Source: a virus (lineage: Duplodnaviria; Heunggongvirae; Uroviricota; Caudoviricetes). Taken from it: 12,073 nt of DNA. Position numbers: made by a program. The stretch is from positions 1 to 12,073 of IMG/VR virus record IMGVR_UViG_2671181085_000001; one strand, 5' to 3'. Position 1 is the first letter of the stretch; each line of letters opens with the position of its first letter. This document shows, piece after piece, positions 6,001 through 12,000 of the stretch.

Positions 6001-9000
6001 GCCATCGACAAAAGTCTGCTCGTGAAGCGGCGGGTGGTATGCCGGACCCGACGCTGCCGGAGGTGTCCGGAGGTAGTGGCAGAGCGGACGACATCATCGG
6101 ACTGTAACCCGACCGGGGGGGGGTATCATTCGGCGTAAAAAACGATCGCTCCGGACACCGCGCCCCCTCTCACGCAGAGAAAAAATTCCCGTTTCAGGGC
6201 AGTTAACATGTTAACTGGCTGTCCGGGCATTTTTGCGGTTTTTATCTTTATTATTCAGTTTGTTGCGCGGAAAAAATGTTAACTGGCTTTTTCAGCAAAT
6301 GTTAACCAGGCAGCAGTTAACATTTGCGGCATGAGACGCCGGGAAAAATGGGCTGAACCATACCCGGCTGAGTGCGTTCTGGACCCGGGAGGAGGCTGTG
6401 CTGACAACGCAAAAACGAAAATTTGCGCTGGCGCTCATGTCCGGGAAAAACAAAACAGCGTCAGCCATTGCCGCCGGTTATTCGGCGAAGACAGCCAGGG
6501 TTAAAGGCTCGCAGCTGGCAAAAGATCCGGAGGTGCTTGCGTTTATAGCCCGTAAACAGTGCGAGACGGTGGAGGTGGATGAGGTTCCTGTTTACCGGCA
6601 GAAAAAATCAGAGCAGGAGGATAAACCCCGTCGCCGTGAGGCGGCTGCAATACCACAGCCGGACGAAACAAATCCGGAGATGCCACCGCCCGTGGTGATA
6701 TCTCCTGGTATTGAGTATATGGAGGACGGTCTTCCCGATCCGGTGAAAGCGATGGGGCGTCTTCTGGTGGAGAACATTAATACCGACCCCAGGCTGGCGC
6801 TGGATGCGGCTTATAAGCTGGCGCAGTTCACGCACCACAAAAAAGGGGATGCCGGTAAAAAATCGGCAAAAGGTGACGCGGCGAAAAAAGCGGCTAACCG
6901 TTTTGCGGTGCCACCACCACCCCGACTGGTGGTGAATAATGATAATGAGGGCAACGGATGATACCTGTGTGGAGCACGGCCTGCCCGGACTGGGCAGAGC
7001 GCCTGAAAAAGGGGCTGTCGATTATTCCGGCCCCGATTTATCCGGATCAGGCTGCACATGCACTGGCGATTTTTAAACAACTGCGGATTGTGGATGCACC
7101 GGGCAGCCCGACGTTCGGGGAGTCCTGCGCACAGTGGGTGTTTGACCTGGTGGCGGCCCTGTTTGGCTCCTACGATGCGCAGACCGGTGTACGCCATATC
7201 AAGGAAGTTTTTATCCTTATCCCCAAGAAAAACAGCAAGTCCACGCTGGCTGCCGGGATCATGATGACGGCGCTGTTACTGAACTGGCGGCAGGCGGCGG
7301 GCTACACCATTCTGGCCCCGACCGTGGAGGTGGCGGCTAACGCCTTTAATCCTGCGCGGGATATGGTACGACGGGACGATGATCTGGATGACCTCTGCCA
7401 GGTGCAGACACATATCCGGACCATCACCCACAGGGTGACGGACACCACCCTTAAGGTGGTGGCTGCCGATCCGAATACGGTATCCGGTATCAAGTCCGTG
7501 GGGACGCTGATTGATGAACTGTGGTTATTTGGCAAGCAGTACAAAGCGGAGGACATGTTACGTGAAGCCATAGGCGGCCTTGCCTCCCGCCCGGAAGGGT
7601 TTGTGGTGTATACGACCACCCAGTCGAATGAGCCGCCAGCCGGGGTGTTCAGACAGAAACTGCAGTACGCCCGGGATGTCCGTGACGGCAAAATTCATGA
7701 TCCGCACTTTCTGCCGGTGATATTTGAGCATCCGCCGGAGATGGTGGAGCGCGGTGAGCACCTGCTGATGGAAAACCTCGCCATGGTCAATCCGAATCTC
7801 GGTTATTCGGTGGATGAGGCTTTTCTGTACCGGGAGTACCGTAAAGCCCGGGAGGCTGGTGAGGAAGCATTTCGTGGCTTCATGTCAAAACATGCCAATG
7901 TGGAAATTGGTCTTGCCCTGCGTTCTGACCGCTGGGCGGGTGCGGATTTCTGGGAGCAGCAGGGCAGGCGCGTCAGCCTGGACGATATCCTGCAGCGCGC
8001 TGATGTGGTGACGGTGGGGATTGACGGCGGGGGCCTGGATGATCTGCTGGGAATGTACGTGATTGGCCGTGACAGGGAAACCCGCGAATGGCTGGGCTGG
8101 GGCCATGCCTGGGCGCATGAAACCGCGGTGGTCAGACGGAAGAGTGAGGCATCCCGGTTTCAGGATTTTGTGGCCTGTGGAGACATGACGATTGTCCGTC
8201 GGGTCGGGGATGACACGGCGGAAGTGGCGGAGTATGTGCGTCGTATTCATGAGGCTGAGTTACTGGAGCATATCGGTATTGACCCGTCAGGTGTGGGGCA
8301 GATTCTGGATTCACTGGTGGAAGCCGGGATCCCCGACGGAATTGTTGTGGGGATAAGCCAGGGCTGGAAGCTGGGCGGGGCCATAAAAACCACCGAGCGC
8401 AAACTGGCTGAGGGAGTGCTGGTGCATGGTGGTCAGCCACTGATGGCCTGGTGCGTTGGCAATGCCCGGGTGGAGCCTAAAGGTAACGCCATCCTTATTA
8501 CCAAACAGGCCAGCGGACGGGGGAAAATTGACCCGCTGATGGCGCTCTTCAATGCGGTATCCCTGATGTCCCTGAATCCGGAGCCGAAAAAGAAAGAATA
8601 TGCGGTTTTTTTCATATAACCCTGTTCACCCTGTAACCATCATGGACCGCTGCGGCGGTTTTTTTATTTTCAGGAGGCTGATGTGACTCTTAAACGGGCC
8701 TGCTCCCTGCTGACGGTGAAATCCTTCAGTGAGGATGAGCGGGTGATCACCGGGATTGCGTCAACGCCTTCTCCGGATCGGGATGGTGACATCCTGGAGC
8801 CGGAGGGCGCGGAGTTTGGCAGTGCGATCCCGTTTCTCTGGCAGCATGACCATTCCCGCCCGGTGGGGCAGTGTACGGTGCGCCGGGTCAGCGAAGGGCT
8901 GGAAATCACGGCAACACTGGCGAAGCCCGTGCCGGATATGCCATCGCAACTGGCTGCCAGGCTGGATGAGGCCTGGGCGGCCATTAAGACCGGGCTGGTC

Positions 9001-12000
9001 AGGGGGCTGTCCGTGGGCTTCCGTCCTCATGAATACACCTTTCTGGACGGAGGTGGACTGCATTTTCTGCGCTGGGAGCTGATGGAGGTGTCTGCCGTCA
9101 CCGTGCCCGCGAATGCGGAATGCACCATCCGGACCATTAAATCTTACGACCGCCAGTTTTCTGCCGCGTCCGGCAACCGGAAACCGGTGGTGAAAATCGC
9201 ATCTTCTGCCGGCGCTGCGGCACAGTCAACAACCGTTTTTCATAAGGAAAAGACCATAATGAATATTGGCGAACAGATTAAAAGTTTTGAAAACAAGCGT
9301 GCAGCACTGGCAGCCTCCCTTGAGGAGGTCATGACCAAAGCCGCAGAGGAAGGGCGCACGCTGGATGTGGAGGAGGAAGAGCATTACGACAACACCGCAG
9401 CGGAAATACGTCAGGTGGATGCGCACCTGAAGCGCCTGCGTGAACTGGAAGCCGGTAAGGCCGCCACGGCGCAGCCGGTGAAACAGGCCGGTAACGGGAA
9501 TGTGGCCGCGGTGGCTTCTGCGCCGGTGATCCGTGTGGAGCAGAAACTGGATAAGGGGATTGGTTTCGCACGTTTTGCCAAATCGCTGGCTGCGGCTAAA
9601 GGTGTCCGCTCTGAAGCCCTGGAAGTGGCCCGTCGTCAGTATCCGGATGACAGTCGTCTGCATCATGTCCTGAAATCGGCAGTGGGCGCGGGGACCACCA
9701 CGGATCCGCAGTGGGCAGGCAGCCTGTCTGAATATCAGGAATACGCACAGGACTTTATTGATTACCTGCGTCCTCAGACCATTATCGGGCGATTTGGTCA
9801 GGGCGGGATCCCTGCACTTCGTCAGGTGCCGTTCAATATCCGTGTGCACGCCCAGGTGTCGGGCGGTGCTGCCGGCTGGGTGGGTGAGGGTAAGGCAAAA
9901 CCCCTGACGAAGTTTGATTTTGAATCCATCACCTTCAGTCATGCTAAGGTGTCGGCCATTGCGGTACTGACGGAAGAATTGATCCGTTTTTCCAGTCCGG
10001 CTGCTGATGCACTGGTCCGTAATGCGCTGGCGGAAGCGGTGGTGGCGCGTCTGGATACAGACTTTGTGGACCCGAAAAAAGCGGCGGTGGCAGATGTCTC
10101 CCCGGCGTCCATCACCCATGATGTGAAGGGCACGGCATCAAGCGGTAACCCGGATGCGGATGCAGAGGCGGCGTTTGGACAGTTTGTGGCAGCAAACCTG
10201 CAGCCCACCGGTGCGGTCTGGCTGATGTCCAGCACCAATGCTCTGGCGCTGTCCATGCGTAAAAATGCGCTGGGTCAGAAAGAATACCCGGACATGACCC
10301 TGCTGGGTGGCTCCTTCCAGGGGCTGCCGGTGATTGTCTCCCAGTATGTGGGTGACCAGCTGGTGCTGGTGAATGCCCCGGATATTTATCTGGCGGATGA
10401 CGGCGGCGTGGCAGTGGATATGTCCCGCGAGGCATCACTGGAAATGCAGTCTGAGCCGACCGGCGACAGTACCACGCCGTCGCCGGTGGAGCTGGTTTCC
10501 ATGTTCCAGACAGGTAGCGTGGCCATCCGTGCGGAGCGCTGGATCAACTGGCGTCGTCGCCGTACCGCGGCGGTGGCGGTGATCACCGGAGTGAACTATG
10601 GCAGTGCGTCCGGCGGCTGAGTCTGATAAGGAGGACGGGAGGCGTGTGCCTCCCGTAACAGGTTATGGCAAAGATCCGATATCTGCAGGGCACGCATGAT
10701 GCCCGGGCCGGGGATATCCGTGATGTGGCACAGCCGTGTGCGGAGGTGCTGGTTCGCCTGGGAAAGGCGGAGTACATCACGGTGCGACGTCCGGCAGGTC
10801 AGAAAAAGAAACGTGATGCGGAGCATGGCGAATGTGGAACCTTTTACGGCGAACCCGAAAAAACCAGAAATCAGGACGTGACGTAAGAGAGGCGGGCTGG
10901 ACCAGCCTGTTTCAGGCGGTGGCTGAGCCCTTTTCCGGCGCCTGGCAGCAGGGCGTGAAAGCCGATCCTGAAGCCGTCCTCTCCTTTCATGCGGTGTTTG
11001 CATGTATTTCGCTGATATCCCAGGATATCGCCAAAATGCGGCTGCGTCTTATGCAGACGGATGCGCATGGGATACGCAGGGAAACGCGCCGGGGGGATAT
11101 TGCCCGCCTCTGTCGTCGCCCCAATGCGCAGCAGAACCGCATTCAGTTTTTTGAACTGTGGCTGAACGCCAAACTGCGTCACGGCAATACGGTGGTGCTG
11201 AAAATCCGTAATGCCCGGGGGCAGATCAAAGAACTGCGTATTCTGGACTGGAACCGGGTTGAACCTCTGGTGGCGGATGACGGCGAGGTGTTCTACCGCA
11301 TCACGCCGGACCGGAACTGTGGGATCACTGAGGCGGTGACGGTGCCTGCCCGGGAAGTGATCCACGATCGGTTTAACTGTTTTTTTCATCCGCTTATAGG
11401 GTTGCCGCCGGTGTATGCCGCCGGGCTGGCGGCCACGCAGGGGCATCATATTCAGGAAAATTCGACGTCTTTTTTCAGAAATGGCGGCAGGCCGTCCGGG
11501 GTGATTGAGATCCCCGGCAGTATTACGGAAGAAAATGCGAAAAAACTGAAGAGCAACTGGGACAGCGGGTATACAGGCGAAAATGCGGGGAAAACGGCCA
11601 TTCTGAGCAACGGGGCAAAATACAACCCCACGACGTTTTCACCGGTGGATGCGCAGACGGTGGAACAACTGAAGATGACCGCTGAAATTGTCTGTTCGGT
11701 GTTCCGTGTCCCGGCCTACAAGATTGGCGTGGGACAACCGCCTTCCAGTGACAATGTGGAGGCGCTGGAGCAGCAGTATTATTCCCAGTGCCTGCAGACG
11801 CTGATTGAGTCCATTGAACTGTTACTGGATGAGGCGCTGGAAACGGGGGAAAACGAGAGTACGGAATTTGATGTCACCACGCTGCTGAGAATGGACGTAA
11901 GCGGCTCGCCAGAACCGTCTTACTATTTACTGAGTGCTCAGATCAACTTTCCAGGGCAACAGAACGCGTACCCGATTTGCCGGCCAGTCCTGGATATGCT

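Follow-up and report, generated by a model that had tools for sequence, protein, structure and literature searches.

A prohead protease–major capsid protein fusion gene of a lambdoid siphophage carries a conserved internal start, consistent with a nested capsid gene

The 12,073-nucleotide (nt) stretch of DNA analysed here (positions 1 to 12,073 of the IMG/VR record IMGVR_UViG_2671181085_000001; hereafter referred to as the window) comes from an Escherichia coli prophage of the Shiga toxin (Stx) type. It represents late genes of a lambdoid siphophage from the Stx-converting group (genus Marienburgvirus) of BP-4795, 2851, 1717 and YYZ-2008. Its capsid gene is a single open reading frame (ORF) in which an HK97-type prohead serine protease continues, through a linker and a delta-domain-like segment, into the major capsid protein (MCP). 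A sequence-only reading of the window had described this ORF as 645 in-frame codons at 8683–10620 and had drawn attention to an internal Shine–Dalgarno (SD) motif, AAGGA at 9244–9248, followed by an ATG at 9259. The ORF is present exactly as described, with all coordinates accurate, and the internal SD and ATG are confirmed. Here we report how widely the fusion and the internal start are conserved, and what this suggests about the products of the gene. The features of the locus are as follows, with coordinates in the window, amino acid (aa) positions in the full-length product and, where a structure model was used, the predicted local distance difference test (pLDDT) score.

8672..8677, + strand: SD AGGAGG for the full-length product, with a 5-nt spacer to the GTG at 8683 (read from the sequence)
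8683..10620, + strand: full-length ORF comprising protease, linker, delta domain and MCP; GTG start, 645 codons plus stop
8683..9162, + strand: HK97-type (S78) prohead serine protease domain, aa 1 to ~160; PF04586, pLDDT 60–80
8845–8847 and 9010–9012, + strand: residues at the catalytic positions, His55 and Ser110, respectively
9163..9258, + strand: disordered linker with the internal ribosome-binding site (RBS), aa ~161–192
9243..9248, + strand: internal SD TAAGGA, 10 nt to the ATG at 9259; its TAA is out of frame
9259..9261, + strand: internal start codon, Met193 (codon 193, in frame)
9259..10620, + strand: nested in-frame ORF of delta domain and MCP, with a putative product of 453 aa and 48.2 kDa
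9265..9465, + strand: helical hairpin, a delta-domain-like scaffolding segment, aa 195–261
9547..10617, + strand: capsid body, probably of HK97 fold, aa ~289–645; Pfam PF05065 and TIGR01554; the structure model is unreliable there

The full-length product consists of 645 aa (69.0 kDa), and profile searches bear out the domain assignments of the sequence-only reading at both ends. At the N terminus, Peptidase_S78 (PF04586) matches aa 48–153 with 34.1 bits, against a Pfam cut-off of 21, and the stricter equivalog TIGR01543 gives 46.6 bits, under its cut-off of 59. His55 and Ser110 align with His65 and Ser114 of HK97 gp4, which we take to be the catalytic residues of that protease, and are invariant in one of our alignments (A2) and invariant or nearly so in another (A1). 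Because of this invariance and alignment, the protease is probably active. An AlphaFold model, computed from a shallow alignment (homologues at least 73% identical) and with a mean pLDDT of 42.9, is usable for the protease domain, the linker and the helical hairpin only. In this model, the N-terminal domain (aa 1–140) is folded, with a pLDDT of 60–80; a Foldseek search of the PDB with this moderately confident domain model returned nothing significant, the top match being the human cytomegalovirus protease (E 0.08, TM 0.23). The linker (aa 141–193; pLDDT 23–35) is disordered, and neither its sequence nor its length is conserved among homologues. It is followed by a hairpin of two helices (aa 195–222 and 229–261; pLDDT ~77). 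Since predicted disorder extends to residue 193 and the hairpin begins at residue 195, the model places the onset of the coiled-coil delta-like domain right at Met193. Downstream, Phage_capsid (PF05065) matches aa 386–635 with 52.5 bits (Pfam cut-off 24.2), and NCBIfam TIGR01554 (major_cap_HK97) matches aa 204–584 with 77.3 bits (cut-off 27.5) and gives 78.8 bits on the nested part alone (9259..10620). With the shallow alignment, the MCP fold was not recovered by AlphaFold at aa 343–645 (pLDDT <50), and a PDB sequence search gave a single weak match, 9d9w 'Major capsid protein' (E 0.0017). The hairpin agrees with the delta-like coiled coil proposed earlier, and two capsid profiles above their cut-offs place the C-terminal part in the HK97 capsid family.

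The fusion is not confined to the window. The fused ORF occurs in 1,252 of 5,426 complete Escherichia coli genomes, with at least 80% of the query covered in 1,249, and in ~90 phage records at >95% protein identity, isolated phages included; BP-4795, 2851, 1717, YYZ-2008 and vB_EcoS_phi330 all have it. A scan of viral contigs with the window protein found only E. coli loci of 96–100% identity. Homologues at 73–78% identity, from Salmonella, Enterobacter, Klebsiella, Serratia, Kosakonia and Pantoea, are all 644–648 aa long. A HMMER search of 1.84 billion cluster representatives yielded 1,199 proteins at E ≤ 1e-30, and the best 150 representatives of 50%-identity clusters (38–54% identity) are mostly fusions of 630–680 aa; hundreds of protein clusters keep the fusion. 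We also scanned one genome per species, with a 13-sequence alignment as the seed, and obtained 80 loci of 39–81% identity from Enterobacterales, Pseudomonas, Rhizobiales, Sphingomonadales and others, in 77 of which the fusion is continuous in frame. The sequence-only reading had envisaged that homologues might uniformly carry a stop codon at the junction; relatives with such a stop belong to four lineages. We conclude that the fusion of a protease to a delta-bearing MCP is genuine, ancient and widespread, and that it is the rule in the large family to which the window belongs.

Two observations concern individual members of this family. The copy on chromosome 2 of Brucella pseudogrignonensis (L150), whose internal start is TTG, is probably decaying: a frameshift and in-frame stops interrupt its capsid domain close to the 3′ end. 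Some database proteins are longer (P0001, 1079 aa; P0123 and P0133, ~1090 aa; P0003, 784 aa), with TerL domains fused in front or a portal domain behind. They could result from read-through in gene calling, or the larger fusions could be real.

Fusion of the two genes was known before, and has been annotated and catalogued; its description in the sequence-only reading as a departure from the normal arrangement was overstated. ORF56 of BP-4795, which is 99.5% identical to the window protein, has been annotated since 2003, as 'putative major head protein/prohead protease'. The window protein matches PHROG 617 (major head protein, a 626-position profile) from end to end (E 2e-261; aa 1–639 to positions 7–626), and PHROG 4523 is labelled 'major head and protease protein'. 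The label 'major capsid and protease fusion protein' is used in actinophages (Arthrobacter clusters AM, AU and AN, and Rhodococcus RRH1), and the fusion genes of the Arthrobacter clusters were called an 'unusual feature' (PMC5513430). NCBIfam NF045541, named 'prohead protease/major capsid protein fusion protein', aligns with aa 48–287 at 53.1 bits, against a cut-off of 525; the window protein has the architecture of this family but is a non-member. Neither the actinophage fusions nor the NF045541 family are close relatives of the window protein. All these annotated fusions likewise combine protease and MCP in one ORF and are treated as a single product, with no mention of an internal start found, and none of the database records examined annotates a capsid precursor beginning at Met193. 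Searches of the accessible literature turned up no account of an internal start within a protease–MCP fusion. As far as that literature shows, the conserved nested capsid start is the new point.

The internal start was examined at the DNA level in 82 sequences, comprising 81 loci from other species and the window. A start codon lies 4–8 codons 5′ of a conserved EQI motif in all 82 (ATG in 76, GTG in 3 and TTG in 3), and wherever the residue is Val or Leu, three cases each, the codon is GTG or TTG, respectively. A protein-only alignment of ~118 fused representatives likewise has Met nearly throughout at this boundary, with exceptions that are mostly Val or Leu. An SD core, defined as GGAG, GAGG, AGGA or AAGG 5–13 nt 5′ of the start, precedes the internal start in 74 of the 82 sequences, with a spacing of 5–10 nt in 72 of these 74. 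In the same ORFs, such a core precedes 12.7% of in-frame positions and 12.9% (150/1161) of the other in-frame ATGs, and at two control methionines it is rare (3/82 at the conserved Met515 and 2/65 at Met217). The SD/ATG pair is therefore far beyond chance. Many of the internal SDs are full AAGGAGG or GAGGAGG motifs (−10 to −12.6 kcal/mol), and 35% of the internal sites belong to the strongest 2% of their own ORF by anti-SD binding energy.

The SD is conserved as a nucleotide motif across changing peptides. It occurs in two codon phases (AAG-GAG type, 40; AAA-GGA type, 32), so that different peptides encode it, and the peptides over it vary accordingly (KEG, EEG, QEG, REG, LEG, KGN, KGK and HKEK). 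When the sequences are grouped by single linkage at 60% identity, 16 of the 20 clusters show the pattern. Among near-identical E. coli copies, the spacer between SD and ATG reads ACCATA or TCAGCA, with TAAGGAAAAG and the ATG fixed. Predicted mRNA structure is weakest at the internal start (z = +1.78 ± 0.06), which is the top peak within ±240 nt.

Relatives in which protease and MCP are separate genes mark the same codon. A junction stop codon is found in the Burkholderia phage vB_SBP39, two Sphingopyxis prophages and an Ignatzschineria prophage, and MCP genes of split relatives start, on alignment, at the residue equivalent to Met193. In vB_SBP39, Met1 of the MCP aligns with Met193 (39% identity, E 7e-95), and the protease, 42% identical to that of the window, is encoded by a separate gene in a different frame. 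This phage has the same gene order, TerS-TerL-protease-MCP-small ORF-portal, as the window. Its junction reads TTTCAATAAGGA-N10-ATG, in which the TAA of TAAGGA terminates the protease in frame, with the MCP encoded in the +1 frame. The window junction, TTTCATAAGGA-N10-ATG, has the TAAGGA and the spacing of vB_SBP39 but one base fewer 5′ of the TAA; therefore the TAA is out of frame, and protease and MCP are in frame. The −1-frame TAA at 9243 is probably a remnant of an ancestral stop codon overlapping the SD. In the Sphingopyxis prophages the stop is TGA, with an 81-nt spacer after it, and the Ignatzschineria prophage has an in-frame TAA at the junction. Five cluster representatives that consist of the MCP only also begin at the position aligned with Met193.

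A further observation concerns the two Sphingopyxis loci (L132/L140, ~2501–3360), in which the split protease has an extra C-terminal tail of ~25–30 aa (...APFVVREIKRT*), whereas the fused forms lack it. This tail could be a capsid-targeting peptide standing in for the covalent link.

Three other explanations of the locus were weighed. The sequence-only reading had itself offered loss of a stop codon in a decaying prophage, or a sequencing error, as the alternative to nesting. Some features invite this: the portal gene of the window copy is interrupted at ~11905 by an IS66-family element, relatives in four lineages have a stop codon at the junction, and the out-of-frame TAA within the TAAGGA of the window is one base off the Burkholderia arrangement. 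The fused ORF, however, recurs identical or near-identical in the 1,249 E. coli genomes and in isolated phages, and it is kept down to ~40% identity, without internal stops in the 77 continuous species loci and throughout hundreds of protein clusters. Because the fusion is intact across all of these, stop-codon loss, sequencing error and pseudogenisation are refuted, and we assign them practically no probability. The window's prophage copy is probably defective, but this is unrelated to the fusion. In another scheme, a −1 slip on the T5 run at 9236–9240 would lead through TCA to the TAA at 9243–9245, releasing a free 21-kDa protease beside the fusion. The window does contain GTT TTT CAT AAG, with the −1-frame TAA two codons past the run, but there is no canonical X XXY YYZ slippery heptamer, and neither the T-run nor the −1 TAA is conserved in Salmonella, Serratia and other homologues; we therefore rate such slippage as very improbable.

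The remaining alternative is that only the 645-aa polypeptide is made and that each capsid subunit carries its own protease, with the methionine and the purine-rich stretch reflecting peptide constraint (a delta-helix N-cap or a cleavage site) or ribosome pausing between domains. Several points speak for it or against two products. Conserved peptides can yield SD-like motifs: in 34 of 81 sequences an SD-like core precedes the conserved Met588, so peptide constraint can mimic an internal RBS, since here the SREASLEM peptide makes the GAGG. (In the window, SREASLEM lies at ~10420–10447, codons ~580–588, and the invariant Met588 has no start-type substitutions.) The linkers repeatedly contain 'KEG' and 'KG' dipeptides, and those of Rhizobiales quite often 'PKEG'. 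The SD of the window itself, AAGGA at −6.2 kcal/mol, is modest, reaching no higher than the top 11.5% within its own ORF; 8 of the 82 sequences have no recognisable SD; and the counts are not independent events because the sequences are phylogenetically related. The minimum of mRNA structure is only supportive, since low local G+C content coincides with it. The covalent link is dispensable, as split relatives exist, and by a rough volume estimate of our own even 415 protease domains may find room in a T=7 procapsid, which makes an all-fusion capsid physically conceivable. The actinophage fusion genes are annotated as one product (PMC5513430), an experimental report of an internal product was not found in the accessible literature, and synthesis of two products is something we infer from comparison of sequences.

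Other properties of the site fit poorly with a single product. The methionine is replaced only by Val encoded as GTG and Leu encoded as TTG, as expected of a start codon and not of a residue with a structural role; the SD persists in two codon phases, over different peptides and at the canonical 5–10-nt spacing, with the remaining linker unconserved and disordered; and split relatives start the MCP at exactly this codon. We accordingly regard the single-product explanation as unlikely.

The nested-gene proposal of the sequence-only reading thus gains strong comparative support from the start codon, the SD in two phases and the split relatives. We consider it likely that the ORF works as a nested gene pair of the lambda C/Nu3 type. 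Initiation at GTG 8683, from the SD AGGAGG, would give the 69-kDa protease–linker–delta–MCP fusion, and initiation at ATG 9259, from the SD TAAGGA with its 10-nt spacer, would give a 48-kDa delta–MCP protein serving as the bulk building block. Fusion subunits, a minority, would join capsomers through their capsid moiety. In HK97 the interior of the procapsid is lined by the delta domains; by analogy, an inward-facing delta domain would position the protease inside the procapsid. After assembly, the protease would cut off the delta domains, and with them itself, in an HK97-like manner, with cleavage between the delta and shell domains, probably in the disordered aa ~262–290. The synthesis of both products, their ratio, their co-assembly and the cleavage site are what we infer from the comparative evidence. 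We also considered a weak 5′ start as the tuner of the product ratio and dropped the idea: the 5′ start codon is GTG in the E. coli lineage and ATG in most homologues, so the GTG of the window is a lineage feature and no general ratio-setting device. Our confidence is only marginally lower in the broader reading, in which the very large fusion family as a whole is a two-product nested gene, the Met193 capsid precursor is its unannotated main product, the protease is encapsidated through minority subunits, and single-base changes near the SD, which overlaps the former stop codon, turn fused forms into split ones and back.

Lambda C/Nu3 and Mu I/Z are nested protease/scaffold genes in which an internal start gives the C-terminal assembly protein in excess. 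In the haloarchaeal virus HFTV1, the nesting of gp17/gp17.5 was shown by ribosome profiling (Ribo-seq), with lambda and herpes simplex virus 1 cited as precedents (10.64898/2026.09.13.751334), and the protease/scaffold logic of herpesvirus UL26/UL26.5 has been discussed (PMC11565193). A preprint on the cyclic-oligonucleotide-based antiphage signalling system (CBASS) deals with protease–scaffold fusions only. The gene described here would share with lambda, Mu, herpesviruses and HFTV1 a 5′ start giving protease plus assembly part, an internal in-frame start giving the C-terminal part, and a fusion that brings the protease into the procapsid. Unlike in those systems, the putative internal product is delta plus MCP, with no free scaffold; because the delta scaffold is joined to the MCP, protease, scaffold and shell subunit share one frame. 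HK97 gp4/gp5 resembles the gene in its protease family, with aligned His and Ser residues, and in its capsid family (TIGR01554/PF05065), where a helical delta domain at the N terminus acts as a built-in scaffold. It differs in having two genes, in the order TerL-portal-protease-MCP, whereas the window has a fusion in the order TerL-protease/MCP-small ORF-portal. Targeting of HK97 gp4 relies on a C-terminal tail of the protease itself.

If the internal start is used, the protein annotated as "major capsid protein" has the wrong primary product and a 48-kDa precursor has been missed, in a family that includes the Stx1/Stx2-converting siphophages of enterohaemorrhagic E. coli. Such an error would touch proteomics searches, structural work on capsids and recombinant capsid expression, and its reach would be thousands of Proteobacteria prophages, among them the long-tailed Stx phages carried by roughly one in four complete E. 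coli genomes. Protease targeting would then have a third solution, in addition to the C-terminal targeting peptide (HK97) and the free-scaffold fusion (lambda and herpesviruses), and the nesting principle would extend to a scaffold that belongs to the shell protein. The arrangement would offer a natural system in which the protease-to-subunit ratio is set by two competing starts on one mRNA, and the fused and split relatives provide ready evolutionary intermediates. A nested capsid start is a logical variant of the classical arrangement, not a new kind of system, and it is directly testable.

The neighbouring features of the window are the following.

6398–6961: TerS
6958..8619, + strand: TerL (terminase large subunit), with Pfam TerL_ATPase and TerL_nuclease, directly 5′ of the protease–MCP ORF
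8644..8661, + strand: terminator-like hairpin and T-run, between the terL stop (8619) and the RBS of the capsid operon
10665–10886: small ORF between the protease–MCP ORF and the portal gene
10832..11905, + strand: portal gene, 3′ of the capsid gene, cut by an IS66-family element

The window matches BP-4795 at 98.1% across 5546–11905. Its head module runs TerS-TerL-protease/MCP-small ORF-portal, with the portal gene 3′ of the capsid gene, an order also found in Salmonella and Serratia prophages and in one Burkholderia phage; a module with the portal last is unusual, and loci L001, L002, L083 and L085 share it. As there is no portal gene between terL and the capsid gene, an origin of the window from a capsid-forming phage-inducible chromosomal island (cf-PICI) satellite was considered; it was rejected, since the window corresponds to the late genes of a complete BP-4795-type phage, in which the portal gene follows the capsid gene. 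Similarity to BP-4795 and to E. coli 89-3156 ends at 11905, and 11906–12073 matches IS66 transposase regions at 92–94% (an ISCro1-like, IS66-family end), from which we conclude that the portal gene is interrupted. In E. coli 89-3156 (NZ_CP027366, L166 7150–9734), PGAP calls the portal region one 2.6-kb 'frameshifted' pseudogene. BP-4795, Salmonella and Serratia have two overlapping genes there, a portal of ~450 aa and an ORF of 300–460 aa that has no Pfam match. The pseudogene call may be an annotation artefact.

The hairpin at 8644..8661 was one site in a consensus scan, against 2.2 expected in shuffled sequences, and is not significant alone. A second G/C-T-run, GCGGTTTTTTT at 8603–8613, lies just within the 3′ end of terL, and the hairpin and T-runs near this end could modulate the ratio of terL to capsid expression. 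Upstream of TerS, the window encodes an endolysin, Ant, Rz, a Rha-like regulator and HNH. Positions 1–5545, the lysis and anti-repressor region, are mosaic relative to BP-4795, with only patchy matches of 87–95%, and the anti-repressor-like genes Ant (2148–2720) and Rha-like (3517–4059) are interleaved with the lysis genes R and Rz.

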